From assembly GCA_964472415.1 (NCBI GenBank), contig CAYYLC010000002.1:32470-96469 (forward strand): 64,000 nucleotides of DNA, in the 5' to 3' direction. This stretch comes from an uncultured Gammaproteobacteria bacterium (GTDB taxonomy: Bacteria > Patescibacteriota > Microgenomatia > Levybacterales > GWA1-39-11). Positions 1,954-60,333 of this stretch are shown in pieces; the first letter of the stretch is position 1, and every line of letters starts with the position of its first letter. Under the pieces are notes generated by a model. That model did no database searches. It saw only the letters and a program-made list of their open reading frames with translations, and had not been told where the DNA came from. Position numbers and translations under genes: made by a program.

Positions 1954-1983
1954 AAGTATTGTATCTTACCGTACGAGGCTACT

Positions 1984-6788: not shown

Positions 6789-6879
6789 TATTTGTTTCAC
6801 CTCCTTCTCATAATGATTGTTCGATTTCTCGAACGCACTTCGTAAACTTGCTCCGCACATTTCGCCTTCGGTAGCCCCT

Positions 6880-9946: not shown

Positions 9947-9957
9947 TTTCTGATGCA

Positions 9958-10653: not shown

Positions 10654-10658
10654 AAACT

Positions 10659-16859: not shown

Positions 16860-16901
16860 AGAATCAGAATACCAAAGAATAAATTCATTCTCAACTTATC
16901 A

Positions 16902-17960: not shown

Positions 17961-17981
17961 GTAAAATCTTATTTTGCACTA

Positions 17982-21675: not shown

Positions 21676-21724
21676 CCTACTATCAGTTTAGAGGGTGTAC
21701 GAATTCAAATCAAGCGAACATATA

Positions 21725-22591: not shown

Positions 22592-22629
22592 AATGGATAT
22601 TTTAGCATTCGAGATGCTCTATTGCTAGT

Positions 22630-27855: not shown

Positions 27856-27904
27856 ATTTCTATTATAGACAAATTACAAACTATTGACCAAATTATAAGT
27901 CCCT

Positions 27905-30292
27905 TTATGCATCTTGCTCTCCTGAATTATTATCTTTATTTTGCTCAATTGGCAATTCTCGTCGCATAACCATCTCAGCAGAAGCTGATTCTTGCCGTGG
28001 CTTATTTTTAAGAAGCATATCATCTTCCTCACGCTTTTGGGTTAATGCTTCTAGCACCTCACGACCAGCAGCTTGCTTTGCCTTGAGATATGCAATAACC
28101 TCTGCTTTTGAAAATCCTCCAATTAACAAGAATGGCAACACATCCGAAACTGTTTCCATGCCTTTTTGTATTTGTGTTTGATCTGGAGAGCTTAAGAGAT
28201 TTATTGCTTCTTCTATCTTTTGACCATCCTGAGTAACCCACTCTTCCTTTGAAAGCCTCTTTCCATCAAGCGGTGCTGGTGGTTCCATATTGGCGTAATT
28301 TTCCTTCCATATATTCTTTACTTCTTCATACTCATCCAAGCTTACTTGTTGAACACGATTGACTACCGGCAGTGATGCTTGTGCAATAGCACTTACCCCT
28401 TCTTGCGGAAGTACTTTTTCTGCAAGCTGGCTTCCTTTCTCTTTTTCTGCAAATAATTTCTCCTTTACTTTATCGAGAAGTGATTGTCGCTCTTCCTCAT
28501 TAATTGTCTCACTTGCAACCTTATTACTCATGTCCAAAACATAGGTTGCGAGCGGATTCCCTTGACTCTGCGCAGAGAGTAACTCTTCACGAATAGATTG
28601 TGCCTTTTGTCGCTCTTGGGGAGAAAGTGCTCTTGTAGGAGACGCGATATGCTGAAGCGTAAGATTCAAACGATTCTTTACCATCTCGCCTGCCATTCGT
28701 CCTCGCATACCAACTTGTGATCCAAGACGTGACGCACTCAAAATAGAAGATGCAAGAGGGTCTCCCTTCTGCTGCATTTGAACCAATTTTTCTTTAATAG
28801 TTGTAAACTTCTCACGTTCAATAACAGGAGCTGTCGCAGGAGATGAGATTTGACTCAGCTTATTTGTTACCTCAGTGCGCTGCTGCTGAATAGTCTGATT
28901 TTTTGTCAATGAGGCTGATTCCATACGCGCAATATCACGCATTTTTGGAATTGAGAGATTTGCAAGTCGCATTACCTCTGTCGTTTCATTTGTAACTGCA
29001 GAAGTCCTTTGTTGAGAAGATACCCCTTTATTTACATCAGCACTCGTTATTTTCTTAACAGGTATCTGCATTTGCCGCTTATTTGAAAATGGCAAACTCA
29101 TAGCACGCCCAGCTCCTGCCGGACTAATTGGCGGTGGGGGAGGAGGAGATCCAGGAGGAGATCCAGCAGGTTGATTGATAAATGGAATGTTTGTCCTTGC
29201 TATTCGCCGATACAACGCAGTCTCGGTAAATGATGCATTATTTATGTAATCCAAAAATATCTGCAACAACAGCCAGGGAAGGAGGATCACTACCCAGAGC
29301 ATTAAGAGCGCTACGACATACTGTGCAAATGTGTCACTCAAATTTACAGAATTTGTAATTCCGATTCGCTGCGCTGGACCTCCAAGTAAAATACTAATTG
29401 CTGTCGGATATACTACCTGACCTTGTTCTACTCCAGAAAAATCAAATCCTAATGGAATTCTATCTCGCCACATTCCAACTAAACCATGGAGGAAAATCGC
29501 AAAAAGAGGAGCGTATAAAAGCCATCGGAAAAATTCTCCCACCCATACTTTGGCAGTATTTCTCAGTGGAGAAAAAAAGATTAAAAGCGGAAAAACAGGC
29601 GAGATGATAAGAAAAAACCATAATATAATTTTCCTGATTAGGAGAATACCTGACATCACATAATATGTCACCGCAGTAATCCGAACAAGTAAAAGCGAAA
29701 TATAGGCAGACTCATCATATTGGATACCTGCCTTTCGATAACCCATAAATTGATAATCAAATCCTATATAGAGAAGGTCTGTTGGATCAATCAATCGTTC
29801 ATTCTGAGACTCTGGATCTGTCGTTGCAAGAAAGAAACCTTGAATAACATCAAAAAACTGATAAAGAAATCTCACAATCGCAAAGGACAAAACAATAAAA
29901 AGGAGAATTATGATGAATCGAGGAATAAACCGCACAATGGTAAGATTCTGCCCTCTTGTAATAATCATAATAAACGCAGCAACAAGAATAAAAAGTACGA
30001 TTAACGCAAGAACTATTCGAAGAATCTCGCTCCAAAATACTGCTAGAGGATTCGTTGCAGCATCTTCTCCAAGATCAATCCACTCATAATTCTGCAATGT
30101 CCATTCTAAAAACGCATTTGCACGAGCTGCCGTTTTCCCAATAAACGTTACCTCTTGATCTTCTCTCCAATCGGCTAACACATCGGGCACAGGGGTAGTG
30201 CCCACAACTTGTGCTGAAGCAGTGCCGGGAAAGGAAAAGACACCTGATAAAAATAGGACTGTGGTAAACAATATGGGCAGTAATCGTTTCAT
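27905..30292 (-). CDS. Large polytopic membrane protein, VirB6/TrbL-like (putative type IV secretion-like channel component) with a long coiled C-terminal cytoplasmic domain
   Basis: Signal peptide, about 6-7 TM helices over residues 90-350, a poly-Pro linker (SPPGSPPPPPPISPAG), then a ~400-aa Gln/Glu/Lys-rich domain. It lies immediately downstream of a VirB2-like pilin gene. The family assignment is by architecture. Confidence 0.35.
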   Translation of the reverse strand: MKRLLPILFTTVLFLSGVFSFPGTASAQVVGTTPVPDVLADWREDQEVTFIGKTAARANAFLEWTLQNYEWIDLGEDAATNPLAVFWSEILRIVLALIVLFILVAAFIMIITRGQNLTIVRFIPRFIIILLFIVLSFAIVRFLYQFFDVIQGFFLATTDPESQNERLIDPTDLLYIGFDYQFMGYRKAGIQYDESAYISLLLVRITAVTYYVMSGILLIRKIILWFFLIISPVFPLLIFFSPLRNTAKVWVGEFFRWLLYAPLFAIFLHGLVGMWRDRIPLGFDFSGVEQGQVVYPTAISILLGGPAQRIGITNSVNLSDTFAQYVVALLMLWVVILLPWLLLQIFLDYINNASFTETALYRRIARTNIPFINQPAGSPPGSPPPPPPISPAGAGRAMSLPFSNKRQMQIPVKKITSADVNKGVSSQQRTSAVTNETTEVMRLANLSIPKMRDIARMESASLTKNQTIQQQRTEVTNKLSQISSPATAPVIEREKFTTIKEKLVQMQQKGDPLASSILSASRLGSQVGMRGRMAGEMVKNRLNLTLQHIASPTRALSPQERQKAQSIREELLSAQSQGNPLATYVLDMSNKVASETINEEERQSLLDKVKEKLFAEKEKGSQLAEKVLPQEGVSAIAQASLPVVNRVQQVSLDEYEEVKNIWKENYANMEPPAPLDGKRLSKEEWVTQDGQKIEEAINLLSSPDQTQIQKGMETVSDVLPFLLIGGFSKAEVIAYLKAKQAAGREVLEALTQKREEDDMLLKNKPRQESASAEMVMRRELPIEQNKDNNSGEQDA

Positions 30293-36194: not shown

Positions 36195-36288
36195 ATTTTT
36201 CACCTCCTTCCGTTTGTATGTACATTAGCAATGTATCATAATAACTGCTAATTTGTCAACACTTTTATCGTCTGATATCATTATCTTC

Positions 36289-37179
36289 ATGAGAAGAAAG
36301 TTATTGTTTTTACTTGCCGTAATTTTAATTTGCGCTGGTCTATTCCTCTTTGTAAAAATTATTGATTCATTCAAAACTCCTGGAAAAGGAGCGCTTCAAA
36401 TAAAGACAAATATTGCAGGCACTGTATTCCTTAATGGCACGGAAATTGGCACAGCACCTCTTTGTAAATGCAACGAAAGCGATACTATCCCCGCTGGCAT
36501 ATACGACCTACGAATTGAACCTGAAGATAAAACTCTTTCTGCATTTAGCACAAAAATCTCTATTAATGGCGGAGTACTTACTGCAGTAGAACGGACATTC
36601 CTTCCTGGTGCATTCGCAAGCGCATCCATCCTCACTTTGGAAAAAATCAACTCAGAAAATCCAGAGCTTGTTATCACTTCTCTCCCTGATAATGCAATTA
36701 TTACTATCGATAGTGTTTCTCGAGGCGCAACACCCTATAAGGCAACGGACCTCTCAGAATCCGAACATGAGTTAAAAATTAATAAAGAAGGATTCCAAGA
36801 AAAAACAATACAAATTAAGATGATAAAAAATCACAGACTCATAATAGAAGCGTACCTTGGCACCCAAGGAGCTAATGAAAAATTAGAACAAATATCAAAT
36901 CAAGAAGCCACTAGCTCTGCAAGACTCAACGAAGAAAAAGACGACGAAGAAGAACCTACAGAGGACGAAGCAGCAAAAATTCAAATCACTACTATTCTTA
37001 CAACTCCAAACGGATTCCTACGAGTAAGAAGTGGTCCAGGAACGAGCTTTTCCGAAGTAACACGAGTAGATACTGGGGACGAATTTGAATTTATTTCAGA
37101 AAGAAATGCTTGGTATCAAATAAGAATAGATGAAAATACAACAGGCTGGATAAGTAGCCAATTTGCAGAAATTAATTAA
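36289..37179 (+). CDS. Membrane-anchored PEGA-domain protein with C-terminal bacterial SH3 (SH3b) domain
   Basis: TM (LLFLLAVILICAGLFLFV), two PEGA-like beta domains (...GTVFLNGTEIGTAPL...; ...AIITIDSVSRGATPYKATDL...), an acidic linker and an SH3b-like GFLRVRSGPGTSFSEVTRVDTGDEFEFISERNAWYQIRI. Confidence 0.55.
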   Translation: MRRKLLFLLAVILICAGLFLFVKIIDSFKTPGKGALQIKTNIAGTVFLNGTEIGTAPLCKCNESDTIPAGIYDLRIEPEDKTLSAFSTKISINGGVLTAVERTFLPGAFASASILTLEKINSENPELVITSLPDNAIITIDSVSRGATPYKATDLSESEHELKINKEGFQEKTIQIKMIKNHRLIIEAYLGTQGANEKLEQISNQEATSSARLNEEKDDEEEPTEDEAAKIQITTILTTPNGFLRVRSGPGTSFSEVTRVDTGDEFEFISERNAWYQIRIDENTTGWISSQFAEIN

Positions 37180-38129
37180 CCTCCCAGGACATAAATTATA
37201 AATATTACTAACAGTGCCCATGAAATAACTGCCCCCAACAAAGATTTATCCGAAAGAAGCACTCTGTCAGGACTCTCTCCTTCTTTCTTTTCATAAATAT
37301 CTTGAAGATACCGCATAATTCCGTAAATAACCGGAATTATTGTTATCATAAGCCATTTTCGTTTTAATAATTCAAATGGTAAAAATTCTGGCAGTAATAC
37401 ATCGATTTGAATTTCTAAACCTGATGGATTTGCAAGGAAGGTAAACATTGCATAAAACACAAACGTCGAAGTAGCAAAGATTGCTGAAAATGAGCCCAAA
37501 AGCGGTTCTGAATAATGAGATAGGCTCTTGCGAATCTCGTCTACTCGAATATTTTTCGCTCCTTGAAGAAGTGTTAACTCAGACCTCCGCTTCCCTGTTG
37601 CAAGGAAAAGTGATAGTGAGATTGTAGTTAGAAGAAGCCACACAGAAATGTGGAAATTTGAAATTGATGCACCGGCAAGAATTCTTAAGATGTATCCGGA
37701 TGCAATAAATAAAATATCAAATATTGCAATCGACTTAAAAATCAATGAATACAAGAGTTGCAAGAGAAGATACAACAACGCTAACACAAAAAACACAAAC
37801 CCGAGGGAGAAGGAAATAAATAGAGCGGTACTGAGTGTTATCGCAAGAATAATAATCGCTTCAAAAACAGAGACTTTTTTGCTCGCAATAGGGCGATTTT
37901 TTTTAAATGGATGAAGCCTATCTTTATGTACATCGAGTAAATCGTTCACAATGTATGTAGATGAGGAGAGTAAGCAAAATGCGATAAATGCAGTAATTAC
38001 CTGCCAAAAAGATGTCGAATCAAACAGCTGACCAGAAAATGTAATTGCTGCAAAAAGCGCAAGATTCTTTATCCACTGACGCGGTCTCAACAATTTAAAA
38101 ACTGCATACAAATGACTATTCATATTCAT
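37176..38129 (-). CDS. UbiA-family prenyl-phosphate phosphoribosyl/pentosyl transferase, similar to decaprenyl-phosphate phosphoribosyltransferase (DPPR synthase, Rv3806c-like)
   Basis: RPRQWIKN, YIVNDLLDVHKDRLHPFKKNRPIASKKVS and GKRRSEL match the DPPR-synthase signature as recalled from Rv3806c (RPRQWVKN, NDVRDVEADRQHPTKRFRPIAAG, GKRYAEL). About 8 TM helices. Confidence 0.6.
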   Translation of the reverse strand: MNMNSHLYAVFKLLRPRQWIKNLALFAAITFSGQLFDSTSFWQVITAFIAFCLLSSSTYIVNDLLDVHKDRLHPFKKNRPIASKKVSVFEAIIILAITLSTALFISFSLGFVFFVLALLYLLLQLLYSLIFKSIAIFDILFIASGYILRILAGASISNFHISVWLLLTTISLSLFLATGKRRSELTLLQGAKNIRVDEIRKSLSHYSEPLLGSFSAIFATSTFVFYAMFTFLANPSGLEIQIDVLLPEFLPFELLKRKWLMITIIPVIYGIMRYLQDIYEKKEGESPDRVLLSDKSLLGAVISWALLVIFIIYVLGG

Positions 38130-39177
38130 TTTCCTCTTTTGTTATAAACCTCAACATGAAAAAAAGACCACTAAATAAAACGATTAAAAGAATTATAGCA
38201 AATACCTTTCCGCGACTTGATGCACTCAACGCTATGAGTCCCAATACTAAGGACATAAGCCAATAAAATGCTGCAATACTCCGATGCCCCATCCCATATT
38301 CCAAGAGCATATGATGAAGATGCCCTCTATCATGCCAGAATGGAGAACGCTTAGAAAGAATTCTTCGTACTATTGTAAACAAAGCATCAATCGTAGGAAT
38401 TCCCATAACAAGCACTGCTGTCGCAAGTTTTACCCCCGAAGTTATTGATAATACTCCAAGCAAAAAACCTAGTATCGTAGCGCTGTACCCGGGAAAAATT
38501 TTTGCAGGATAAAAATTAAATACTAAAAATCCCAACGCTGCTCCCGCTACAATAAATGAAAATTGGGCGATTTCCATGTTAATAGATTCGATTGGAAAAA
38601 ATCGCAATGACGCTATTCCGATAATGACCGCAGAAATAGCTGCAATCCCCGGCATTTGCCCATCCACTCCCTTACTCCAATTCAACATATTCATCACCCA
38701 AACTATCCATAAAATCGCTAAAATAGATCCTACATGAATAGTAACAGTTCCCAAAGAAAACAGATACATCGTATCAAAATGCAAAATCCCGCCAAACGGA
38801 TTTGTGATAAACGGGATTGAAACACCGGAAAATACAACCAAGGACGCGCAGATAATATTAATAAAAAATCTCAGATACGGAGACGAATCATACTTATCAT
38901 CAAGAAGCCCTGTAATAACAGTTATAAATGAAGCACCGAGAATCGCAAGCGTAAGAGAATTTATCGGAATAAAAACAAAAACGGCAAGAGCAACTGCAAG
39001 AAATATCGGCAGTCCTCCAGCTCGAGGAATTGGTTTTTTATGCAGGATCGCAGGATGTTTATGCCTTTTTGGATCATCGATAAAATCAAATTTTTTTGCA
39101 AAATGGATTGTCGGAGGAACTAACATTATCGTTACCAAGAATGCAACAATGAGCGGTAATAATAATGTAAAATCCAT
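38116..39177 (-). CDS. Polyprenyl-phosphate N-acetylhexosamine-1-phosphate transferase (GT4 family, WecA/MraY-like)
   Basis: MNMLNWSKGVDGQ motif, 10-11 TM helices. It overlaps the UbiA-like gene by 14 nt. Confidence 0.7.
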   Translation of the reverse strand: MDFTLLLPLIVAFLVTIMLVPPTIHFAKKFDFIDDPKRHKHPAILHKKPIPRAGGLPIFLAVALAVFVFIPINSLTLAILGASFITVITGLLDDKYDSSPYLRFFINIICASLVVFSGVSIPFITNPFGGILHFDTMYLFSLGTVTIHVGSILAILWIVWVMNMLNWSKGVDGQMPGIAAISAVIIGIASLRFFPIESINMEIAQFSFIVAGAALGFLVFNFYPAKIFPGYSATILGFLLGVLSITSGVKLATAVLVMGIPTIDALFTIVRRILSKRSPFWHDRGHLHHMLLEYGMGHRSIAAFYWLMSLVLGLIALSASSRGKVFAIILLIVLFSGLFFMLRFITKEENEYE

Positions 39178-39543
39178 CTAATAAATTAAAAATAAAATTT
39201 GTAAATATGCGAATGTCCCCAGTAAGCAAAACAGGAAAGAATTAAATGAAATTATACGAGCGAGAAGGGTAAATTTTTTATAGATTGTTATTACTAATAC
39301 CATATTTATCAGAACAACTGCGAGTACAAAAATCGGGAGTATTATAACCATTTGACCAGAATACAGCCTCATCATTCCCCATGGCATACTGTTAAATAAC
39401 GGGACTAATGGAGGAAGATGTGGGTAAGAAAATACAACCAAACTACTTACTGCAAGTAAAAAAACTGCCGTAAGAGTTGATGAGTAACGTAAAAATTTAT
39501 CCTTATACAGTATGTTAATTTTGCCTTTCATAAATACTTGCAT
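39178..39543 (-). CDS. Small membrane protein (hypothetical)
   Basis: 121 aa with 3-4 TM helices, lying between the GT-C gene and the WecA-like gene. Confidence 0.35.
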   Translation of the reverse strand: MQVFMKGKINILYKDKFLRYSSTLTAVFLLAVSSLVVFSYPHLPPLVPLFNSMPWGMMRLYSGQMVIILPIFVLAVVLINMVLVITIYKKFTLLARIISFNSFLFCLLGTFAYLQILFLIY

Positions 39544-40996
39544 CCGAAATCCTATACTTCAAAGAATAGGACGGAATAATCATATTAAGCTCTTTTGAAT
39601 CCTTAGTTTTTATAATATATCGTGGGTTTTGCTCTAGAACTTTTTCCCTCATAGTATCTATAGCATTATTATAATAGGTTATATGATATGCAACAATATA
39701 CTTCCCTGGAGGGAGAGTTTCAGAGAGCGCATAAATCTGCGCACTATCTGTCCAGACAAAGACCGTTTCACCCTCTTCTTTCAATTCTCTAATAAATCGC
39801 GCAAGCTCATAATCTCGTGGGGTATTACTGTCAAAAAATGCTTGATATTTCCCAATGGGTTTATCATTTGTAATAAAGGCAAAGTAATTCCCATAATACG
39901 AAATTGTTTTTTTATAAATTCCAAAATTAAAATATAGTATCCCAAGAACTCCAAACAACACTATAATTTTCCCTATCCTATTCATGGGGGAATCGATAAT
40001 GTTTCCTATCAACAAGCAAACAGGAATTAGAGACATCAGCACATAATGAAGATAGGCTCGTTGAGAGAAAAATGTACTAAATAATCCAAATGCGAGCCAA
40101 AGAAAAATAAATAATTCTGCCTTTGTCAATTTTTTTCTCCATATATAAATTCCACAAACAACTCCGACTAATATTGCTATCTTGATAAATAAAATACCCA
40201 TAGGAAATACTAAATTATTCCCGGCACCCACATAATCAATATTTTCCGAAAAAACTCCTGACAGAAAATCAGGAAATGCATGTAAAAGGAAAAAGTAAAA
40301 GCCAAATACTCCTAACAGTGAAATAAAACCTACAAAAAACAACAGCTCTGCCTGCATTTTTTTGAAATTCAAAAACTGATGAATTTTTGCAATTTTAAAT
40401 GAAGGATTTTTAAACAAAAAGAGAAATATTATAAACGCGCTAAATTCAAATATCGCAACGATTTTTATAGCAAAAGCAAATGATAAAATTACCCCTGAAA
40501 GCACTATATATATCTCTCTCCTCTTCTCAAGATAAAAAAAGAGGAGGAGTGCAGAGACAAGAATTGGCAAATGCATAATGTTTTCTGCATTTGCAATATT
40601 CCCCTCAATAATTGGAAGACCAAAAAAGAGCGCATATACCGTTGTTGAAACAATGACACTTATTTTTTTCTGAAATATTTTTTTTCCTAAAAAATAAAAC
40701 GCGATTACACTAAGTCCTCCTAGAATAAATGAGAATAGGCGAACAAAAAATTGTTCACCATTAAAAAGAGCGTAAATATAATACAAAAGAGGAGGTTTAT
40801 TATCCCAAATATCTTGATACAAAACCCTACCATCCTGTATCGCTTTTCCAATAACTTGATAAATGCCCTCATCACCATACCAATAGGGCTCGGAAAGTGA
40901 TGGCAGGCGCAATAATCCAAAAATAAGAACACATCCTATCACAAACCACGCATCTTTGTGAGGCTTTACTTCGGCATTAAAAAATCGCTTTAGCAT
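39515..40996 (-). CDS. GT-C superfamily membrane glycosyltransferase (ArnT/PMT-like, GT39/GT83-like)
   Basis: SEPYWYGDEGIYQVIGKAIQDGRVLYQDIWDNKPPLLYY (the DE motif of ArnT/PMT enzymes), about 11 TM helices and a C-terminal soluble domain. Confidence 0.65.
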   Translation of the reverse strand: MLKRFFNAEVKPHKDAWFVIGCVLIFGLLRLPSLSEPYWYGDEGIYQVIGKAIQDGRVLYQDIWDNKPPLLYYIYALFNGEQFFVRLFSFILGGLSVIAFYFLGKKIFQKKISVIVSTTVYALFFGLPIIEGNIANAENIMHLPILVSALLLFFYLEKRREIYIVLSGVILSFAFAIKIVAIFEFSAFIIFLFLFKNPSFKIAKIHQFLNFKKMQAELLFFVGFISLLGVFGFYFFLLHAFPDFLSGVFSENIDYVGAGNNLVFPMGILFIKIAILVGVVCGIYIWRKKLTKAELFIFLWLAFGLFSTFFSQRAYLHYVLMSLIPVCLLIGNIIDSPMNRIGKIIVLFGVLGILYFNFGIYKKTISYYGNYFAFITNDKPIGKYQAFFDSNTPRDYELARFIRELKEEGETVFVWTDSAQIYALSETLPPGKYIVAYHITYYNNAIDTMREKVLEQNPRYIIKTKDSKELNMIIPSYSLKYRISDASIYERQN

Positions 40997-42495
40997 CAGA
41001 CTTTATCAGTAACCTTATACTCCATTCGCTTTCCCAAAATGAGCTGAATATGTGTAAGCAGTGCAGGAAGCGCAGAAAGGAGAAATCCCCCAATAGGCAT
41101 AAATAAAAATTCGAGAGGGAAGAGAAATTGTCGTATCCTTGACTGTTTCGCAAAGCTACTTCTTGACCGCATTGTATAGTCAACATAAATCATCCCCACT
41201 AAAGAAAACAGGCAGAGTGTGAGTATAAACCCAGAGAGTTGGGGGAGCGTATAACCCAAACTTGTCCGAGAAAACACTGGATTCAAAATTACAACTGCAT
41301 TTGCAGAGATTGTAATAATAAACCAATTTACTGGCCATAATATATGATCAATCAATACATTCAATACAAGTAGCGTCTTTCTAAAAAATGGCACTCCTTT
41401 CACCGTCAGATACCATTTCACATAAAGCGCATCGTCAGAAATCCCCCAAGACCAACGCCTCTCCTGATAAAACTTGTTCATAAGACTTTTTACGTATGAA
41501 TGTGACTCAGCTGCATCCATAGACGTTTTCAGAAAAATTGGTTCAACAACCACCCGTCCTTTTGTCCGAAAATATGCCTTGAAAAAAATTCTATAGTCCT
41601 CTGGAATCACATCTGTATCCCAATAATCTAAATCATGAAGCAGCTTAAAAGACAATGAATAGACAGAGTTTGGGATAAGGCGCACCCGCTGTACAAGAAT
41701 TGATGTCCTCCATAAGCTTCCAAAAAATGAGATGATACGAGTAAATGACGGAACTTTCCAGAAATTATTATAATTTACATTTGCTGATTGCCAGAATGTA
41801 TAATGCGGATCTTCTGACTTCAAAAATGCATGCCCAAGATAGGCATAAAACTGCCTATCAAATAATACGTCAGCGTCTACCGAAGAAACAGACATATAAT
41901 CAATATCAATTTCCCTCTTCTGAATAAGCTCCTTGTATGCATCACGCGCGGCATAAGCCTGGTTTGATGATTTTCCTTTTACTTCATGGGGCAAATCAGG
42001 ATGAAGCGTATAATAAAATCCGCCAAATACACTTTTATATTTTCTCTGAAGTTTTTTCGCTTTCTCCTCAACATTATCCTCGCGCTTCTCTAATGCAAGA
42101 TATAGAAACATTCGATCACCAGGAAATGTTTGTTTTTTAATACTTTCTAAAGTAAGAGAAATTTTTTCAATACTCTCTTTATAACTTGGGATTACGATTA
42201 GATGAGTCACCTTCTCAAAATTTGGCAGCTTTTCTGCCTCCTTAAGCCAGTCAATCTTCTCTGCTTTATGGATTTTCCGTGCGGCAATCCATGAAGTAAT
42301 CACTAAATTAACTGATTTATATAGCCAGTACACATCAAAGAAAATAATGAAATATGCAAGCCAAACTGGAAAGAAAAATGATCCCCAAAAAGGAGCTGTT
42401 ACAAAAAAGAGTGCTATGAGCGGAGGAATTATTTCCAAAAGTCGTATTGACTTATTGGGATAACGTTCGAAAAATCGTTCGAAAAAATCATGCAT
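40996..42495 (-). CDS. Processive membrane glycosyltransferase family 2 (QxxRW type, cellulose/chitin-synthase-like)
   Basis: N-terminal TM, GT2 core (LIVIPSYKES; DxD SVDAD; QERRWSWG) and C-terminal TM helices. Confidence 0.7.
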   Translation of the reverse strand: MHDFFERFFERYPNKSIRLLEIIPPLIALFFVTAPFWGSFFFPVWLAYFIIFFDVYWLYKSVNLVITSWIAARKIHKAEKIDWLKEAEKLPNFEKVTHLIVIPSYKESIEKISLTLESIKKQTFPGDRMFLYLALEKREDNVEEKAKKLQRKYKSVFGGFYYTLHPDLPHEVKGKSSNQAYAARDAYKELIQKREIDIDYMSVSSVDADVLFDRQFYAYLGHAFLKSEDPHYTFWQSANVNYNNFWKVPSFTRIISFFGSLWRTSILVQRVRLIPNSVYSLSFKLLHDLDYWDTDVIPEDYRIFFKAYFRTKGRVVVEPIFLKTSMDAAESHSYVKSLMNKFYQERRWSWGISDDALYVKWYLTVKGVPFFRKTLLVLNVLIDHILWPVNWFIITISANAVVILNPVFSRTSLGYTLPQLSGFILTLCLFSLVGMIYVDYTMRSRSSFAKQSRIRQFLFPLEFLFMPIGGFLLSALPALLTHIQLILGKRMEYKVTDKV

Positions 42496-43315
42496 GTTTA
42501 AATGAAAAAAGCTTCTTGCAATTCTCTTCTATTTGTAGGCTCAGCTTATTATAGGTAATCCCCTTTTCCTTTGCAATAAACTCTATGATCAACGGGATAC
42601 TTGCCGGTGTATTCCGTCTCCCCCGAAATGGAACCGGGGATAAAAACGGACTATCGGTTTCTGTAATAATTCGATCCACAGGAACAAAGTGTACAAGGTC
42701 AACTAGCGCCGTGTTTTCTTTTGGCGGAATACCACCATACGTAATATTTCCATCAAATCCCACATAAAATCCTGCATCTAATACTTTTTTCGTAAACTCA
42801 ATATTTCCTGAAAAACAGTGAAACATCCCTGGCGGATTTTGAAAATCTTTTTTGTAATCCAGCAAGATCCGTAGTGTATCATCCCACGCAAGGCGATTAT
42901 GAATCTGGAGTGGTAATTTCAGCTTGAGAGAAAGCTCAATTTGTTTTCGAAATGCTTCTTCCTGTAATTTTTTTTCAACAATTCCATTAGATTTGTAAGA
43001 AAAATAATCCATACCGATTTCTCCAATTCCCACCACCTTTGGATGTTTTGCAAGCTTTTCAAGCTCAGAAAGCCAATTCGTATGAAGCTCTCCTTCGAAT
43101 TCAACATCAGTCTTATCAGCATGATGCGGATGAATTCCAACGATTGCATATAGATTCTCGTACTGCTCAGAAAGCTCTACCGCACGACGAGATGAAGGTA
43201 TTGATGTTCCAGTATTAATAATTGTAGTTACGCCTGCATTAAGCGCGTCTTTTATTACCGCATCATAATCATCGTCAAATTTATGCAGGTTTAAATGGCA
43301 ATGCGCGTCAATCAT
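42488..43315 (-). CDS. tatD: TatD-family metal-dependent hydrolase/DNase
   Basis: MIDAHCHLN...AIVGIHPHHA...GEIGMDY... Confidence 0.8.
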   Translation of the reverse strand: MIDAHCHLNLHKFDDDYDAVIKDALNAGVTTIINTGTSIPSSRRAVELSEQYENLYAIVGIHPHHADKTDVEFEGELHTNWLSELEKLAKHPKVVGIGEIGMDYFSYKSNGIVEKKLQEEAFRKQIELSLKLKLPLQIHNRLAWDDTLRILLDYKKDFQNPPGMFHCFSGNIEFTKKVLDAGFYVGFDGNITYGGIPPKENTALVDLVHFVPVDRIITETDSPFLSPVPFRGRRNTPASIPLIIEFIAKEKGITYNKLSLQIEENCKKLFSFKHA

Positions 43316-43354: not shown

Positions 43355-44005
43355 ATGGATTTTTTTTCACTCATTTTTGTCATAGTGCCCATTTTCATAG
43401 GCTTGACAATTATAGTAAAAATATACCAACTATCAAGCAAACGCTCTCAAACAAATATTCAGGAACATCAAGAAGATAAACAAGAATTTTATACTGACCG
43501 TCCGCGACCAGTTCGCAAACTAGAACACGAAGAAATTGAATTCCTTCAGAGACACCAAGGAAAACATATAATGCCGGAATGGATACGATATAGTCTTATT
43601 ATTGTCCTCATGATATGCTTTCTCTATCTCATCCCTGCTTCATTATTTTTTGTTCTTTTCGCTTCACAGATTTATCAAGCGTTGGGTATAGCTCCATTTT
43701 TTATACTCCCTGTCACTTTTGCTTGCTTAATATTTTTTATATACATAATTTTCTTTCGTCATGATAAATATCGATTTGATCTATATGCTCCTGTTTTTGG
43801 CACAACAGGAAAATCCAATCACTTCATTGATAAAAATAAAAAGCCATATCTCATAACCGTTCGAGAAGTTCCAATTAGCAAATATTATGAAAAAAAGCTC
43901 TTTCGCGACCTCATATCATATCCAGAGGGAACAGATATTTACGTAGAATACAGCCCCCATTCAAAAAAGGTTTGGAGTGCTAAAGTAGTAAACAGGAGAG
44001 AGTAA
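43355..44005 (+). CDS. Hypothetical membrane protein
   Basis: Three TM helices and no recognisable motif. Confidence 0.35.
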   Translation: MDFFSLIFVIVPIFIGLTIIVKIYQLSSKRSQTNIQEHQEDKQEFYTDRPRPVRKLEHEEIEFLQRHQGKHIMPEWIRYSLIIVLMICFLYLIPASLFFVLFASQIYQALGIAPFFILPVTFACLIFFIYIIFFRHDKYRFDLYAPVFGTTGKSNHFIDKNKKPYLITVREVPISKYYEKKLFRDLISYPEGTDIYVEYSPHSKKVWSAKVVNRRE

Positions 44006-44020
44006 CCAACATATGGGGAT

Positions 44021-45700
<1,680 letters not shown>

Positions 45701-45723: not shown

Positions 45724-46035
45724 TTATTGAACGATGGCAAGTATATCTTTTTGTTCGACGATTGTCCATTCTTCGTTGCCAACCTTTATCTCATTCCCGC
45801 CCCACTTTTTATACATCACCTTATCTCCTGCTTTAACGAGCATAGAATCTTTCATGATCTTCCCTTCATTAAGCTCTCCGTCTCCCACAGCCATAACAAG
45901 CCCCGTCTGTGGTTTTTCTTTTGCAGTATCAGGAAGAATTATTCCTCCAGCAGTTTTTGCTTCTGCCTCAAGAGGTTTAATAAGTACATTTGAAAAGAGT
46001 GGTTTTATTGTTGATGTCGCACTGTTTTTTGCCAT
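45724..46035 (-). CDS. groS: Co-chaperonin GroES (Hsp10)
   Basis: IKPLEAEAKTAGGIILPDTAKEKPQTGLVMAVGDG. It lies immediately upstream of groEL. Confidence 0.9.
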   Translation of the reverse strand: MAKNSATSTIKPLFSNVLIKPLEAEAKTAGGIILPDTAKEKPQTGLVMAVGDGELNEGKIMKDSMLVKAGDKVMYKKWGGNEIKVGNEEWTIVEQKDILAIVQ

Positions 46036-46166
46036 AGTATCAATGTAAATCTATTATTGAATTCGAAAAAAGTTTACAACAGCACTGTCAGTTTGTCAAG
46101 TCTTCTGCTAAGATAATTTCATATTATTTATTGACATTGATCTTTATATTGACTACGCTGAAATAG

Positions 46167-49090: not shown

Positions 49091-50740
49091 TTATGGGTTG
49101 AGTTTTGTAGTGTCAAAAATTATCTCTTTTATTTGTTTGGATATTTTGTTGTCAAAGGTAAATCGTCTTGCTGCTGCAATAAGATAATGAAACTCTCCTA
49201 TATCCAAAAGCCATGTGAAAAAAAGATACGCTCCAAATCCTACAACTGATGCTATTCCTGTCAAGAAGAAAAGATTTATCGTTCGCGTTGTATCAAATAC
49301 AAGTTGGTCTAAAAGTTTTACTGGAATATAAAGCGCCACTCCTGTTACAAATGCTGCAATTACAATTTTTGCAGCACTCAAAAAAATAGACAACTTCGGA
49401 AGCGAAATCCTCCTATCAAGAGCAATTATCATAAATAAAAACCCGATAATATTTCCGATGGAAAACGATAGTGCGAGATAGTACACGGGAAGTTTCTGGA
49501 AAATAATAAAGTACATAGAAAATATGATATTTATCAATACCGCAATAAGCGTTATAAAAAATGGCATTTTCGTATCATGCAACGCATAGAATGCACGCGA
49601 CAAGAGAAGTGTTGCTGCTTGAACACTAATTGAAATACTCAAAAATGCAAGCGTATATCCAGTTACAAGCGTCGCTTCCCAATCAAATCGCCCAGACCCA
49701 TAAAAAAGCCGGACTAACGGAACACGAAGTACGATAAATAGCGCACTAATTGGGAGTGTAAGATACAAGATCTGATTAAAAGAATTCTTAAATACCGTCT
49801 TAAATTCTTCTAAATTTGAGGTTGATTTAGAAAGTGTAGGAAAACTTGCCTGTGCGATAGATTGCCCAAATAATAAAACAGGTGCTGCCATGAGCGTCAT
49901 GGCAAGATCAAATACAACAATACTCCTCGCGGAGATTATCGATGCAAAGAATACATTTGCAGTTATTGCGATTTGCGCAACGGCAATAGTCATTGAGCGA
50001 GGGAGCATCATGCGAAGCACTCTATCTACACCGCTATGTAAGCTTAATGTAAGCTTCGGAATGTACCCACTTGCAAGTATCAAAGGAAGCTGTGCAAGAA
50101 GAAATAGCAATGCACCCAGAACCACTCCCCATGCCGCACCATAAATTCCAAAATGTGGAACGAGAAAATACACGCCAATAATTATCCCAATGTTGTATAG
50201 CGCATTTGCGATTCCGGGAACGAGAAAAAAGTGGAATGATTGCAGCATGGCGGTAAAAACTGTACCAAATAAGAAAAAAATCTGTGATATTTGAATAATC
50301 CGCATAAGATTTGCAAGCAGTTGAATTTGGTCATCAGTAAATTCAGGCGCAATAACTCGAGCAAGCGGCTCAGCAAAGGCTATAACTATTAAAGAAATTA
50401 TGCTAAAAATAATAAGCCCCAATGTGGTAATTGCTGATGCGAAATGAAAGGCATCTTTTTTTTCCTTCTTTACTAAATTCTCAGTAAAAATAGGGATGAA
50501 TGAAGAAGAAAGCGCCCCTATAATGATAATTTGAAATAGTAAATCCGGGATCCTGAATGCCGCCAAAAAAACTCCTAAGTCACTCGTTGCACCAAAATAC
50601 GAAGCAAAAAGACGATATTTAAAAATTCCTAAAACCTGAGATAATGCGGTCGTTATGATAATTAAAAATGCTGCAGTAAAAATATTTGATTGCTTTGTAG
50701 CAACAGCAGATAATCCTCTTCGGACAAGATTTTTTACCAT
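49091..50740 (-). CDS. murJ: Lipid II flippase MurJ (MviN)
   Basis: 549 aa with 14 TM helices and a MurJ/MOP-superfamily N-terminal pattern (TALSQVLGIFKYRLFASYFGATSDLGVFLAAFRIPDLL). Confidence 0.75.
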   Translation of the reverse strand: MVKNLVRRGLSAVATKQSNIFTAAFLIIITTALSQVLGIFKYRLFASYFGATSDLGVFLAAFRIPDLLFQIIIIGALSSSFIPIFTENLVKKEKKDAFHFASAITTLGLIIFSIISLIVIAFAEPLARVIAPEFTDDQIQLLANLMRIIQISQIFFLFGTVFTAMLQSFHFFLVPGIANALYNIGIIIGVYFLVPHFGIYGAAWGVVLGALLFLLAQLPLILASGYIPKLTLSLHSGVDRVLRMMLPRSMTIAVAQIAITANVFFASIISARSIVVFDLAMTLMAAPVLLFGQSIAQASFPTLSKSTSNLEEFKTVFKNSFNQILYLTLPISALFIVLRVPLVRLFYGSGRFDWEATLVTGYTLAFLSISISVQAATLLLSRAFYALHDTKMPFFITLIAVLINIIFSMYFIIFQKLPVYYLALSFSIGNIIGFLFMIIALDRRISLPKLSIFLSAAKIVIAAFVTGVALYIPVKLLDQLVFDTTRTINLFFLTGIASVVGFGAYLFFTWLLDIGEFHYLIAAARRFTFDNKISKQIKEIIFDTTKLNP

Positions 50741-56985: not shown

Positions 56986-57041
56986 ACTATAAATTACTCT
57001 CTGAAAAGATTAGAATATAGCTTGTTAAGCTCATAAAAAAT

Positions 57042-59174
57042 ATGTACTTTTTTGATTTAGGACTTGTAATAAAATTTTGGCTTGTGCTTTTTATAATTGG
57101 CATATTATTTCTCCCCATCACAACAAAAATATTTAGAGGATTTTTTGACAAAGGATATATCTTTTCAAAAATACTAGGAGTAATTATTCTGTCATATACA
57201 TTATTCCTCTTCAGCACTACATATATTCTCCCGTTTAATACACTCTCAATTTTACTAATATTTATCATCTATCTAGTAGCGCTCTTATTCTCTTATGGAT
57301 TAAAGATCCCCAAACTTCCTGAGAAAAAATTGAGGAGAATTTGGGTGTTTGAAGAATCAGTTTTTCTCGTATGTATCCTTTTTTGGTGCTACGTAAAAGG
57401 ATTCCAGCCGGATATCAATGGTCTTGAAAAATTCATGGATTTCGGATTCATAAATTCTGCTATTCGTACAGAATACTTTCCGGCAATTGATATGTGGTTT
57501 GCAAAAGAGCCAATTAACTACTACTACTTCGGGCACCTTATAACTGCATTCCTCACAAAGCTCACTGGGATTGAATCGTTTATCACCTATAATATCATGC
57601 TATCTGCTATTTTTGCCTTTTGCTTCGCCGGAAGTTTTTCGCTAGTTTTTTCTGTCGCATATGATATATTCAAAAAAATCCGCCCAAGCATTCTCGCAGG
57701 CCTCCTCTCCGCCTTTCTTGTAACATTCAGCGGAAATCTCCATACCATTTATACATTTTTTGAAGGATATCAAGGAGAAAATCCAGTTCCTTTCTGGGAA
57801 TTAAAAATGCTCCCCTTGGAAAACTATGGCACAACCTATTGGTATCCGAATGCAACTCGCTTTATCCACAACACAATCCATGAATTTCCGTCATATTCAT
57901 TTGTTGTTTCAGACCTACACGGACACGTTCTGGATATTCCTATTGTGCTTTTAACGCTCGCAGCAACATACGTCCTCGTTCGGAAAAAAGGTCTTACCAT
58001 ACTCAATGTATTTCTGTTTTCATTTTTAACAGCGATTATGTACATGACGAACGCATGGGATGGAATTTTATATTCGGGGCTCATAGGAATAATAATTATT
58101 CTGAAAAGTAGTAAACTGCCTCGCGCTGTTTCAAAAAATAATTATTCTTTTCAAAGATTTTATCCATTTTTTCAAAGTACCTTTGTAAAATTTCTCATAC
58201 TTGGGCTGGGATTTTTCCTTTTTACGCTTCCGTTCAATGTATACTTCAAACCCTTCGCATCAGGAATCGGATTTTTGTGTGCTCCAGAATCTCTACAGGG
58301 AACCTCTTTTGGACCATTTCTTTTTGAAGGAGATCACTGCCAACGATCTCCTTTTTACCAGCTCGCAATTCTTTGGGGATTTTTCTATATAACAATGCTT
58401 ACCTTTGTACTTTTTTTGGTTACGAAAGGAAAAAAGTTACTTGACACAAAGCCTGTTCTTTTTATGCTTATTTTATTCTTTTTTGCATCTCTGCTTATTC
58501 TTATCCCAGAATTTGTATATGCAAAAGATATCTACCCTGATCATTATCGCGCAAATACTATGTTTAAGCTCGGATATCAGGCATTTATCATGCTTTCATT
58601 AACAAGCGGACTCGCAATCACTATTCTTATCCGTTCATGGAAGAAAATATTTCTGATCCCGCTGTTTGTAGTTCTCATTGTGCTCGTCATGATTTATCCA
58701 TATTTTGCGATTCAATCATATTTCGGTGATATAACACCCGATCGCTATCAAGGTTTAAATGGAATTTCTTATTTAAAATTTAAATACCCAGAAGACTATG
58801 AAGCAATTATGTGGCTTCGAGAAAATGTTTCTGGTCAACCAGTAATTGCAGAAGCGCAGGGTGATTCATATACTGACTATGCACGAGTCTCTGCAAATAC
58901 TGGGCTTCCAACAATTCTCGGATGGACAGTACACGAATGGCTCTGGCGCGGAGATTATTCTATACCACAACCAAGGATTGAAGATGTCAAAACACTCTAC
59001 GAAGGAAATGTCTCTGAGGGAAGAGAGATAATTGAAAGATATCATGTATCATATATTTTTATAGGAAATCTTGAGCGAAAAAAATACCAAAATATCAATG
59101 TAGCTAAATTCAGGGAACTGGCAACGCCTGTCTTCACAAATGGCACCACTACTATCTATCAAGTAAACTTGTAG
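57042..59174 (+). CDS. DUF2298/Chlor_Arch_YYY-family polytopic membrane protein (GT-C-like) with C-terminal extracytoplasmic domain
   Basis: 710 aa, more than 12 TM helices, then a C-terminal soluble region with GISYLKFKYPEDYEAIMWLRENVSGQPVIAEAQGDSYTDYARVSANTGLPTILGWTVHEWLWRG. The family assignment is from memory. Confidence 0.4.
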   Translation: MYFFDLGLVIKFWLVLFIIGILFLPITTKIFRGFFDKGYIFSKILGVIILSYTLFLFSTTYILPFNTLSILLIFIIYLVALLFSYGLKIPKLPEKKLRRIWVFEESVFLVCILFWCYVKGFQPDINGLEKFMDFGFINSAIRTEYFPAIDMWFAKEPINYYYFGHLITAFLTKLTGIESFITYNIMLSAIFAFCFAGSFSLVFSVAYDIFKKIRPSILAGLLSAFLVTFSGNLHTIYTFFEGYQGENPVPFWELKMLPLENYGTTYWYPNATRFIHNTIHEFPSYSFVVSDLHGHVLDIPIVLLTLAATYVLVRKKGLTILNVFLFSFLTAIMYMTNAWDGILYSGLIGIIIILKSSKLPRAVSKNNYSFQRFYPFFQSTFVKFLILGLGFFLFTLPFNVYFKPFASGIGFLCAPESLQGTSFGPFLFEGDHCQRSPFYQLAILWGFFYITMLTFVLFLVTKGKKLLDTKPVLFMLILFFFASLLILIPEFVYAKDIYPDHYRANTMFKLGYQAFIMLSLTSGLAITILIRSWKKIFLIPLFVVLIVLVMIYPYFAIQSYFGDITPDRYQGLNGISYLKFKYPEDYEAIMWLRENVSGQPVIAEAQGDSYTDYARVSANTGLPTILGWTVHEWLWRGDYSIPQPRIEDVKTLYEGNVSEGREIIERYHVSYIFIGNLERKKYQNINVAKFRELATPVFTNGTTTIYQVNL

Positions 59175-60333
59175 GAGTAGGGGAGGGGGTAACTATCCCT
59201 TCTTCTGAAATCAAACAAATGTGTCCGGCTGCTATACAGTCTACATATTCATGAATCTGCGAAAACTCACTGTTACCAAGACTTGGAATAAGAACATATT
59301 GATATTTATATTCTTCAGATGAAATTGGTGCCATCACTAATCCATATTTGTCCTCCAATTCATTCCCTTCATCAATCACAAAGCTTCTAATCGTTCCGTT
59401 CTGCATTTCTTGGGCGAGCTTCACGAAATCATCAAGCTTTTCTGTATCTATGTCAGTTACAATATTGTCCTTTATGATATTAAATGCACCTACAACTTTC
59501 ACCGGGTTTAATAAAACATGTAATGACAACATCCTACTTTTAAGCGCTTCAATTACTTTTTGTTGACGTTTACTCCGTGCAAAATCACTCCCTTCGCCAT
59601 TCGTTCCATGCCGAGATCGAACATACCGCAGGGCAGTCTCTCCGTCCATTGTCTGCTCCCCTTCTGTGAAACTTAATGTTGTATATCTGCATGGAAATGA
59701 ATCATACTGTGTTGCTGTACCAGTTGCAATTTGCACTGTTAAGTTGACAATCTCCTCATCACTATATCCACAAGAGTTATTCTCTTTTCCAGAAATTGGA
59801 TATTCATAATCGTCAAATGCACGCTCGACATCTACCTCTATCCCTCCCAGATGGTCAATCAGCTTTACGAATCCCGCAAAATCGATAATCAGTACATATT
59901 GAATATCTTCTCCGACTACCTCTGAAACAGCATTCCGGATATCCTCCACTCCGGTACCATTACTTTTACCAAACGCATAAATCGCATTTATTTTTGCCTG
60001 CGCACTATCTATCCACAAATCTCGTGGGATTGATACCATGTCTACTCGTTTTTCTTCAACTGATACGTGTGAATAAATAAGAGTGTCGGTTAAATTTGGG
60101 CCATCGTGTGTCCCGCCTCCGATTCCTAGAACAAGAATACTAAAATCTTTCTTCTCAGGCGTAACTCCCAAATCAATTGCCTTATCGACTGTCACGCCAA
60201 AAAGAAATGTTCCAATTTGTCTCAGCTGATTCTGAAAAATCCCAATAAAAATCAACACTACGACACCTCCCAATAATACATATTTATACCGTTCCCAGTT
60301 AAATTTTTTCTCTAAGGGTCGTAGTTTTACCAT
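59152..60333 (-). CDS. LytR-CpsA-Psr (LCP) family phosphotransferase (cell-wall glycopolymer ligase)
   Basis: N-terminal TM, then ILVLGIGGGTHDGPNLTDTLIYSHV...VDMVSIPRDLWIDS...AKINAIYAFG (LCP core). Confidence 0.75.
   Translation of the reverse strand: MVKLRPLEKKFNWERYKYVLLGGVVVLIFIGIFQNQLRQIGTFLFGVTVDKAIDLGVTPEKKDFSILVLGIGGGTHDGPNLTDTLIYSHVSVEEKRVDMVSIPRDLWIDSAQAKINAIYAFGKSNGTGVEDIRNAVSEVVGEDIQYVLIIDFAGFVKLIDHLGGIEVDVERAFDDYEYPISGKENNSCGYSDEEIVNLTVQIATGTATQYDSFPCRYTTLSFTEGEQTMDGETALRYVRSRHGTNGEGSDFARSKRQQKVIEALKSRMLSLHVLLNPVKVVGAFNIIKDNIVTDIDTEKLDDFVKLAQEMQNGTIRSFVIDEGNELEDKYGLVMAPISSEEYKYQYVLIPSLGNSEFSQIHEYVDCIAAGHICLISEEGIVTPSPTPTSLLDR

Follow-up and report, generated by a model that had tools for sequence, protein, structure and literature searches.

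We searched the surroundings of a putative phosphoribosyltransferase gene in 64,000 nucleotides (nt) of contig CAYYLC010000002.1 (GCA_964472415.1). This whole stretch is referred to as the window, and all coordinates count from its start. The gene belongs to a five-gene operon which, on balance, we read as encoding a single lipid-carrier-dependent pathway for an envelope glycopolymer that carries pentofuranose. The five co-directional minus-strand genes fill positions 37176-42495 in the order GT2 > GT-C > small open reading frame (ORF) > GT4 > UbiA (GT, glycosyltransferase; aa, amino acids; TM, transmembrane):

42495..40996, minus strand: GT2 synthase, 499 aa
40996..39515, minus strand: GT-C glycosyltransferase, 493 aa
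39543..39178, minus strand: small three-TM protein, 121 aa as ORF; Met5 is invariant and the start is probably at 39531
39177..38116, minus strand: MraY/WecA-family phosphotransferase ("GT4"), 353 aa
38129..37176, minus strand: UbiA-family phosphoribosyltransferase, 317 aa

The label GT4 stands for the Pfam family Glycos_transf_4 (MraY/WecA phosphotransferases) and not for CAZy GT4. The stop codon of the preceding TatD gene and the GT2 start codon overlap (ATGCATGA), the GT2 stop and the GT-C start have one base in common (TGATG), the 3' end of the GT-C gene overlaps the small ORF, the small ORF stop abuts the GT4 start (TAGATG), and the 3' end of GT4 overlaps the UbiA start by 14 nt. Since all junctions overlap or abut, the five genes form one tightly packed, translationally coupled operon. 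An earlier annotation of the same DNA, made from the letters alone (termed the original prediction), had named the four enzymes, and all of them are found at exactly 37176-42495 on the minus strand. It had put UbiA ahead of the GT-C, the reverse of the actual gene order, and had overlooked the conserved 121-aa three-TM ORF between GT-C and GT4.

The UbiA-family protein matches the Pfam UbiA family (5e-22) and scores 232.7 bits (NF008977, cut-off 234), 205.4 bits (NF008978, cut-off 207) and 156.5 bits on the NCBIfam models of decaprenyl-phosphate phosphoribosyltransferase. Among 16 further UbiA-superfamily models listed, the HAD-fused UbiA model NF006088 reaches 166.8 bits and the remaining fifteen, including 4-hydroxybenzoate polyprenyltransferase, heme-o synthase, chlorophyll synthase, homogentisate phytyltransferase, GGGP synthase and EboC, at most 53 bits. 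The sole relatives in the PDB are two cryo-electron microscopy entries of Mycobacterium tuberculosis Rv3806c (8j8j), with an E-value of 5e-32. The motifs RPRQWIKN, NDLLDVHKDRLHPFKKNRPIA and GKRRSEL are literally present in the sequence, which also contains the NDxxDxxxD and KRxxE motifs of the Rv3806c family. Moreover, we compared the protein with a list of functional residues taken from the Rv3806c structure (PMC10994848) and from mutagenesis of Citrobacter ORF15 (PMC11127046). In the alignment all 17 residues (R22, K28, Y70, N73, D74, D77, D81, K87, R90, Q135, Y138, K143, Y157, K191, R192, E195 and K208) are identical, and 16 of the 17 are invariant among 26 Levybacteria homologues. The list covers lipid-phosphate residues as well as the Mg2+/pyrophosphate ligands (N73, D77, R22, K87, R90, K143, Y138 and K208). 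K28, Y70, Q135 and Y157 touch the ribose or the 5-phosphate in the structure of Rv3806c with phosphoribosyl pyrophosphate (PRPP), and they are not conserved in genuine prenyltransferases (PMC10994848). Based on the gap in model scores, the match to Rv3806c and the 17 of 17 residues, the protein is predicted to be a polyprenyl-phosphate 5-phosphoribosyltransferase (DPPR/PPPR synthase). Such an enzyme would use PRPP to form polyprenyl-P-ribofuranose-5-P, the committed precursor of polyprenyl-P-pentofuranose donors. This supports the original prediction, which had assigned the protein to the DPPR-synthase type from its motifs: 232.7 bits stand against at most 53 on quinone- and chlorophyll-type prenyltransferase models, the motifs are borne out when the protein is formally aligned to the structure of Rv3806c, and both the model scores and the alignment place the protein apart from menaquinone and ubiquinone prenyltransferases.

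The phosphotransferase encoded upstream of UbiA matches PF00953 (4.4e-26, 92 bits). It scores 97 bits on the wecA model TIGR02380 as compared to 50 bits on that of mraY, both far below the respective cut-offs. Escherichia coli WecA is 26% identical (E 9e-20), with the DDxxD, NxxNxxDGxDG and HLHH motifs aligned, and the MraY structures in the PDB match at only 5e-9. The protein thus fits WecA better than MraY and is probably a WecA/TagO-like polyprenyl-phosphate sugar-1-phosphate transferase, in line with the WecA-like initiating transferase overlapping UbiA that had been proposed for this position.

The GT2 protein itself gives zero Pfam or NCBIfam matches and nothing meaningful in a PDB sequence search. 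Homologues that are 62-83% identical carry PF13632 and are labelled GT2 or cellulose/poly-N-acetylglucosamine (PNAG)-synthase-like. An AlphaFold (AF2) model made from 32 sequences (pLDDT 86.4, pTM 0.86) has two long N-terminal TM helices, a GT-A domain, two interface helices with the QERRW motif and three C-terminal TM helices. Foldseek searches of the PDB with this model rank Chlorella virus hyaluronan synthase (E 1e-8), BcsA, Xenopus HAS1 and chitin synthases at the top; the alignments span about 500 columns, which is the full length, at E-values of 1e-8 to 1e-5 and TM-scores of only 0.44-0.48. None of the top 50 matches is a lipid-P-sugar synthase of the GtrB/DPM1 type. D207xD209, E299-D300 and Q344ERRW348 show no variation among 32 homologues, and the same DxD, ED and QERRW motifs stay invariant in family members that are only 27-44% identical. 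The model therefore predicts a polytopic processive synthase of the hyaluronan/cellulose/chitin synthase type. This agrees with the processive QxxRW-type GT2 named originally. An exhaustive HMMER search with the GT2 protein recovers 269 clusters (50% identity) at E<=1e-30. All Levybacteria fall into one cluster, the next clusters being just 38-40% identical, and the few named members are hypothetical or GT2 proteins of Patescibacteria and one metagenome-assembled genome (MAG) labelled "Spirochaetales". Judged by these sequences, the protein belongs to an uncharacterised synthase family whose named relatives are nearly all from the Candidate Phyla Radiation (CPR).

The GT-C protein has a PMT_2 match (1.7e-10) that is GT39/GT83-like, and its homologues are named "glycosyltransferase family 39" by NCBI. 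A PDB sequence search returns nothing meaningful. Its AlphaFold model (pLDDT 88.4) shows about 10-11 TM helices followed by a C-terminal extracytoplasmic alpha/beta domain. When the model is compared to known enzymes, the highest figures are obtained for PIG-M (glycosylphosphatidylinositol mannosyltransferase I; 21.2), ALG3 (18.6), ArnT (17.3), Pmt4 (16.8) and AglB (15.6), and those for the mycobacterial enzymes are 12.1 (AftA), 12.1 (AftB), 11.3 (AftD) and 8.0 (EmbA). The Foldseek ranking agrees with a likeness to PIG-M, ALG3, ArnT and PMT, all of which use polyprenyl- or dolichyl-P-monosaccharide donors. The motif EPxWYGDEG is invariant in the first loop, where GT-C enzymes hold catalytic acidic residues. 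In an hhalign comparison with E. coli ArnT, a weak N-terminal alignment (probability 1.6%) puts this motif opposite the PDE segment of ArnT. The predicted structure thus argues for a bona fide GT-C enzyme of the kind that uses polyprenyl-P-monosaccharide donors. Neither its sequence nor its closest structures place it in AftA/GT85, AftB/GT89, AftC/GT87, AftD or Emb/GT53, so that the choice of subtypes raised by the original prediction falls to ArnT/PMT-like and not to AftA/Emb-like.

The small protein has three predicted TM segments. A loop on the outside carries the motif LPPxIPxFNSxPWGExRL, and 13 positions are invariant in 17 orthologues. It belongs to no Pfam or NCBIfam family, and Pfam searches with five orthologues at E<=10 give nothing consistent. 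A relationship to the ArnE/ArnF type was considered and dropped, because hhalign detects no similarity to E. coli ArnE or ArnF. The conservation pattern clearly points to a real gene under selection, whose product might serve as an accessory subunit or as a flippase for a lipid-linked sugar.

To follow the operon across genomes, we used one genome per GTDB species. GT2 relatives are present in 384 of them; the best 80 of the 384 are Levybacteria, including one labelled Roizmanbacteria, and 75 of their loci could be evaluated. GT4 and UbiA lie downstream of GT2 in 75/75 of these loci, as does the small gene between GT-C and GT4, which is also found in many distant loci. The five-gene set was detected in 74/75, the exception being locus L049, which lacks the GT-C. 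The median identities to the window proteins are 63% for GT2 and for UbiA, 59% for GT4, 43% for the GT-C and 37% for the small protein. Distant loci were collected by a metagenome scan seeded with six GT2 homologues of about 40% identity. GT4 and UbiA are kept downstream of GT2 (here 37-46% identical) in 36 of the 39 that could be evaluated, and the order is MetRS-TatD-GT2-[GT-C]-small-GT4-UbiA-(PEGA), where MetRS is methionyl-tRNA synthetase. TatD is directly upstream of GT2 in nearly all loci and MetRS upstream of TatD in more distant ones, while a protein with PEGA and SH3 domains is found at the same position in 70/75 Levybacteria and 23/39 distant loci. The variable part of the locus is the slot between GT2 and the small gene. 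Many relatives (e.g., L092, L106 and L089) have a second, shorter PMT_2 GT-C paralogue of about 430 aa with an N-terminal WGDEA motif. In the distant locus L090, a sulfatase-family (LtaS/EptA-like) membrane protein (9538-11190) replaces the GT-C. Locus L134 carries an insertion (10273-12074) with a short-chain dehydrogenase/reductase-type epimerase/dehydratase, an EamA transporter and a toxin-antitoxin-like pair. Finally, in L132 and L153 GT2 is not followed by GT4 and UbiA. Because the order holds in 75/75 Levybacteria genomes, the arrangement is not due to chance. Vertical inheritance of a core function accounts for this pattern better than a mobile locus of the serotype type would, and the invariance of the operon throughout the lineage suggests that its product is a core component of the wall and not a variable antigen.

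The window has a GC content of 36-44% and encodes GroES/EL, DnaK/GrpE/HrcA, two ClpB-like proteins, MurJ, FemAB, a LytR-CpsA-Psr (LCP) ligase, a sortase and PilN/O. Public contigs assembled from metagenomes, the longest of 233 kb, encode identical proteins. The nearest genomes are those of Candidatus Levybacteria/Levyibacteriota (Microgenomates, CPR), among them the complete 762-kb chromosome CP066685.1. Many of the GTDB representative MAGs that carry the operon (L007, L009, L011-L019 and others) are titled "uncultured Gammaproteobacteria bacterium"; by gene content and similarity they are Levybacteria. An Rfam scan of the whole window detects zero RNA families. The features outside the operon that bear on it are:

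43315..42488, minus strand: TatD-family hydrolase (PF01026 1e-75; TIGR00010 252 bits), at the head of the co-directional string
43409..43436, minus strand: sigma-70-like promoter candidate, TTGATA-16-TATAAT, 11/12 match, about 95 nt upstream of the TatD start, the best match of the region
36253..37179, plus strand: membrane-anchored PEGA + SH3_3 protein (PF08308 6e-14, PF08239 2e-14), converging on UbiA with a 4-nt overlap
59152..60333, minus strand: LCP ligase (PF03816 3.7e-36; TIGR00350 109 bits), 17 kb away and not syntenic with the operon
16902-17960, minus strand: isoprenyl diphosphate synthase, trans-type short-chain, best matches GGPP/FPP synthases

The promoter match is a lead only, since a promoter and terminator scan of the region gave site counts not above shuffled expectation. 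The TatD gene is probably a housekeeping neighbour from an ancestral MetRS-TatD pair and not a pathway enzyme. For the same reason, and because nothing indicates sugar-phosphate activity, it was set aside as a candidate for the absent phosphatase. The PEGA/SH3 protein may act as a partner of the operon product by binding to the wall or the polymer. The LCP ligase is a candidate for the final attachment to peptidoglycan, and MurJ, FemAB and LCP in the window indicate that a peptidoglycan wall is available for it. The isoprenyl diphosphate synthase, which the original prediction had cited as a nearby polyprenyl synthase, lends no support: it is a short-chain trans-type enzyme rather than UppS, lies about 19 kb off and belongs to another transcription unit. 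Its neighbours within 16527-18977 (minus strand) encode a D-2-hydroxyacid dehydrogenase and a 4-TM protein of the "phage holin 4_2" family.

We also looked for the further parts that a lipid-linked pentofuranose pathway is known to use. The search covered the operon, nearly all window ORFs of at least 100 aa (Pfam or NCBIfam), about 10 kb past one end of the window and less than 0.5 kb past the other. A DprE1/DprE2 pair was not found in the 64-kb window, in the recovered flanks (about 10 kb, on one side) or in the operon copies inspected. The same is true for a PAP2 or HAD phosphatase in the window ORFs scanned and the recovered flanks, for glf in the window and the recovered flanks, and for a GtrA, SMR or MATE flippase in the operon, the window and the recovered flanks; the operon also has no EamA protein. 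The UbiA protein, at 317 aa, has no fused HAD/PRP phosphatase domain, and the window encodes a single MOP-family protein, MurJ (49091-50740). The original prediction had seen the "same enzyme set" here as in the mycobacterial cluster, which is unsupported in that form: the GT2 is polytopic and not of the soluble GlfT2 type, and glf, DprE1/DprE2, PAP2 and a GtrA-type flippase were not found in the window.

The enzyme activities in the operon are assigned from sequences and predicted models. On this basis we propose the following route. The WecA-like enzyme would prime polyprenyl-P with an N-acetylhexosamine-1-P. The GT2 synthase would extend the backbone from a nucleotide sugar and thread the polymer through its own channel, following the logic of the WbbF-type route. 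The phosphoribosyl-lipid made by the UbiA protein would be dephosphorylated by an unlinked phosphatase and then flipped, possibly aided by the small protein. The GT-C would attach the pentofuranose to the polymer after its export, either as side chains or to extend it, and the LCP ligase would couple the polymer to peptidoglycan. Ribofuranose is the default sugar in this scheme, because the operon encodes no epimerase; arabinofuranose would be expected only if epimerases are encoded elsewhere. Thus, of the wall glycopolymer on a lipid carrier that was originally suggested, a lipid-carrier polymer with pentofuranose is the best reading, and the term "arabinan" is unsupported.

Several observations weigh against a single pentofuranose glycopolymer pathway. 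The phosphatase and flippase steps have no assigned gene in the operon, the window or the recovered flanks, and the top NCBIfam score of the UbiA protein is 1.3 bits short of its cut-off. Processive synthases usually need no polyprenyl-PP primer, and we infer the functional link between GT4 and GT2 from the operon structure alone. PMT_2-type GT-Cs often glycosylate proteins. In L049, L090, L132 and L153 parts of the operon are separable. Moreover, housekeeping genes (MetRS, TatD and GroEL) are also conserved, and part of the synteny may reflect a stable gene order. The main rival explanation builds on some of these points. It holds that the operon combines two pathways, in which UbiA and the GT-C pentofuranosylate proteins or a lipid, and GT4 and GT2 make an unrelated polymer. 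The protein targets might be type IV pilins, as with Pseudomonas aeruginosa TfpW, or other surface proteins. This would suit a GT-C of the PMT_2/protein O-mannosyltransferase-like family that has Pmt4 and oligosaccharyltransferases as strong structural matches, the separable parts in the four loci, the PilN and PilO genes about 10 kb away, and the pilin arabinosylation via a PPPR synthase cited in PMC11127046. We nevertheless consider it unlikely, since overlapping start and stop codons link the whole set of five genes, the gene order is fixed across deep divergence, the GT-C lies between GT2 and GT4 instead of adjoining UbiA, and the operon has no pilin gene.

The remaining explanations concern the nature of the product or of the UbiA protein. 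The polymer could be a true arabinan, similar to arabinogalactan, if DprE1/DprE2-like epimerases are encoded elsewhere and one or more GT-Cs polymerise a pentofuranan on the backbone made by GT2. Its logic would match that of mycobacterial arabinogalactan (WecA priming, GT2 backbone, DPPR synthase, GT-C and LCP ligase), and the two tandem GT-C paralogues of many relatives are what would be expected for several linkages; we regard this reading as improbable. That the product is not linked to peptidoglycan at all, being either a membrane-anchored lipoglycan (resembling lipoarabinomannan or lipoteichoic acid) or a secreted or capsular polymer, appears quite improbable to us. It would be consistent with the distance of 17 kb and the lack of synteny between the LCP gene and the operon, with the fact that synthase-type GT2s commonly make secreted polymers (cellulose, hyaluronan and PNAG), and with the LtaS/EptA-like sulfatase-family protein in the GT-C slot of one relative. 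A WecA-like primer together with a genomic LCP ligase is, however, the usual signature of a wall-linked polymer, and the neighbouring PEGA/SH3 protein suggests wall association, neither of which is decisive. Finally, the glycan reading would be wrong altogether if the UbiA protein were a common prenyltransferase of aromatic or lipid substrates (similar to MenA, UbiA, heme-o synthase or GGGP synthase). Automatic annotation by JGI does label several homologues 4-hydroxybenzoate polyprenyltransferase, and the score lies just under the NCBIfam cut-off as mentioned. Yet prenyltransferase models of that kind give at most 53 bits against 233 on the phosphoribosyltransferase model, every phosphoribose-specific residue is conserved, and NCBI names some close homologues decaprenyl-phosphate phosphoribosyltransferase, which leaves this explanation scarcely credible.

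The single-pathway reading can be extended to a broader proposal, which we put forward tentatively. Microgenomates-type CPR bacteria might possess a lineage-wide, vertically inherited wall heteropolysaccharide, with a WecA-like-primed GT2 backbone and pentofuranose (ribofuranose or other) added by one or two GT-Cs. It would be an independently evolved analogue of arabinogalactan, and the three-TM protein would be a new flippase, or a subunit of the GT-C or the synthase, that replaces GtrA, SMR or MATE proteins. If true, this would be the first specific envelope polymer pathway defined for CPR.

Other regions of the window contain further genes of possible envelope function. On the plus strand, 54048-59174 encodes a flavoprotein (NF005560/PRK07233; 390 bits, above cut-off), a 553-aa membrane protein with about 10 TM segments and a C-terminal soluble domain that has no family or PDB match, and a 710-aa membrane protein (DUF2298/TIGR03662 "chlor_Arch_YYY", 501 bits). 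This may be a second lipid-linked glycosylation module, which the LCP ligase (59152-60333, minus strand) abuts on the opposite strand. The flavoprotein (54048-55334) was rejected as a Glf- or DprE1-like enzyme, because PDB proteins match its dinucleotide-binding motif only. At 1396-6860 (minus strand), a sortase (1396-1953) lies beside three large ORFs of 408, 768 and 450 aa without Pfam family, which are possibly sortase-dependent surface or pilus proteins. A 216-aa membrane protein (43355-44005, plus strand) is encoded divergently from the TatD/GT2 operon and has a sub-threshold GtrII match (E 5e-4, 19.7 bits, cut-off 30). Of the annotated loci, just the identical contigs (L001 and L002) have it, and relatives such as L003 lack it. 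Two ORFs on the plus strand, 44013-44603 and 45727-46048, were discarded as genes, being mechanical ORFs antisense to groEL and groES. Region 18978-30292 (minus strand), between DnaJ and DnaK, codes for two ClpB-like AAA+ proteins of 811 and 994 aa, a 609-aa subtilase and a protein of 795 aa whose sole match, to TrbL/VirB6, is weak; for a small genome this chaperone/protease block is unusually large.

CPR bacteria are tiny, mostly uncultivated and dependent on contact with host cells, and to our knowledge almost nothing is known biochemically about their cell envelopes. The DPPR-synthase step is a validated drug target, best known against tuberculosis. We found no literature that links CPR, Patescibacteria or Levybacteria to a DPPR-synthase-type enzyme or to such an operon. 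The NCBI annotation at the level of single genes is already known; new are the operon-level picture, its conservation in the lineage, the combination of synthase and pentofuranose modules, and the small protein. The operon offers a concrete envelope pathway and predicts that a furanose-pentose polymer is a constant trait of Levybacteria and related Microgenomates. It joins modules not described together before, namely a synthase-dependent backbone, a PRPP-derived lipid-pentose donor and a GT-C, and it indicates that the DPPR-synthase step is conserved far outside Actinobacteria. With their small size, the five genes are all amenable to heterologous reconstitution.

How does the operon compare to known systems? 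The mycobacterial arabinogalactan and lipoarabinomannan pathway was compared by its parts Rv3806c, Rv3807c, DprE1/E2, Rv3789, AftA-D/EmbA-C, GlfT1/2, WecA and Lcp1. The first committed enzyme appears to be the same (Rv3806c, E 5e-32, 17/17 residues), and the logic is shared: a WecA-type enzyme primes, a GT2 makes the backbone, a GT-C transfers the sugar from a lipid-P-pentofuranose, and the genome encodes an LCP ligase. In Levybacteria, however, the GT2 is predicted to be polytopic with its own channel, as opposed to the soluble GlfT2 and ABC exporter of mycobacteria, the GT-C is outside the Aft/Emb families, and DprE1/E2, a PAP2 phosphatase, a GtrA-like Rv3789 and glf were not found in the window, which makes ribofuranose likelier than arabinofuranose. 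The host also differs, being a low-GC CPR bacterium with a genome of about 0.6-0.85 Mb (from the complete and largest contigs of relatives). We therefore regard the likeness as a probable functional analogy and not as homology of the cluster.

The operon further resembles the three-component GtrA/GtrB/Gtr* and CsbB/GtcA/YfhO systems that glycosylate O antigen and teichoic acids, where a cytoplasmic lipid-P-sugar synthase, a small membrane protein and a GT-C modify an external polymer. Here the donor synthase would be a PRPP-using enzyme of the UbiA fold in place of a GtrB/DPM1-type GT2, the operon's own GT2 is synthase-like and thus differs from GtrB, and the small protein, unlike GtrA, has no PF04138 match even at E<=10. 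For the other half of the operon the parallel is WbbF, a membrane-bound processive GT2 synthase by which a polyprenyl-linked glycan is both polymerised and exported. WecA and a synthase make O antigen (PMC2841628), as do WecA, WbbE and WbbF in Salmonella Borreze O:54. The Levybacteria operon shares with O:54 the combination of a WecA-type initiating phosphotransferase with a predicted processive membrane GT2 synthase, WbbF being likened by description. It differs from O:54 in having no WbbE-like adaptor GT, in the added lipid-P-pentose and GT-C module and in the monoderm-like envelope context of CPR.

The closest known relatives are the Whitfield-type three-component pentofuranose systems, such as that of Citrobacter youngae O1/O2 with the PPPR synthase ORF15, the MATE flippase ORF14 and the GT-C ORF12 of family GT136 (Kelly et al., PNAS 2024, PMC11127046). 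In these systems, PPPR synthase and GT-C deliver pentofuranose extracytoplasmically; the paper does not mention CPR. As in Citrobacter, a PRPP-using UbiA-fold enzyme is genetically linked to a GT-C, within one operon in 74/75 Levybacteria loci, ribofuranose (or an epimer) is predicted to be delivered outside the membrane, and the catalytic N/D residues of ORF15 are the same in the window protein. A dedicated flippase was not found in the operon (MATE, SMR, GtrA and EamA were sought), and neither a fused (HAD/PRP) nor a separate phosphoribose 5-phosphatase was found among the window ORFs scanned. Thus, unlike in Citrobacter, the synthase has no fused HAD phosphatase, an unrelated three-TM protein stands in place of a MATE, SMR or GtrA flippase, and the GT-C is of the PMT_2 type (GT39/GT83-like) and may lie outside GT136. 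Moreover, the Levybacteria module is joined in one operon with a backbone synthase and an initiating transferase, and it forms a fixed core across a CPR lineage, whereas the Citrobacter module is a variable add-on that diversifies serotypes. The operon would thereby extend the pentofuranose systems phylogenetically, from the variable antigens seen in cultivated bacteria to a core operon conserved in CPR, and mechanistically, to a version without known flippase or phosphatase in the operon and with a new small membrane protein. Our proposal of a single pathway derives from these comparisons, because the facts best fit two paradigms in combination, the pentofuranose systems (PMC11127046) and the synthase-dependent, WecA-primed O-antigen route.

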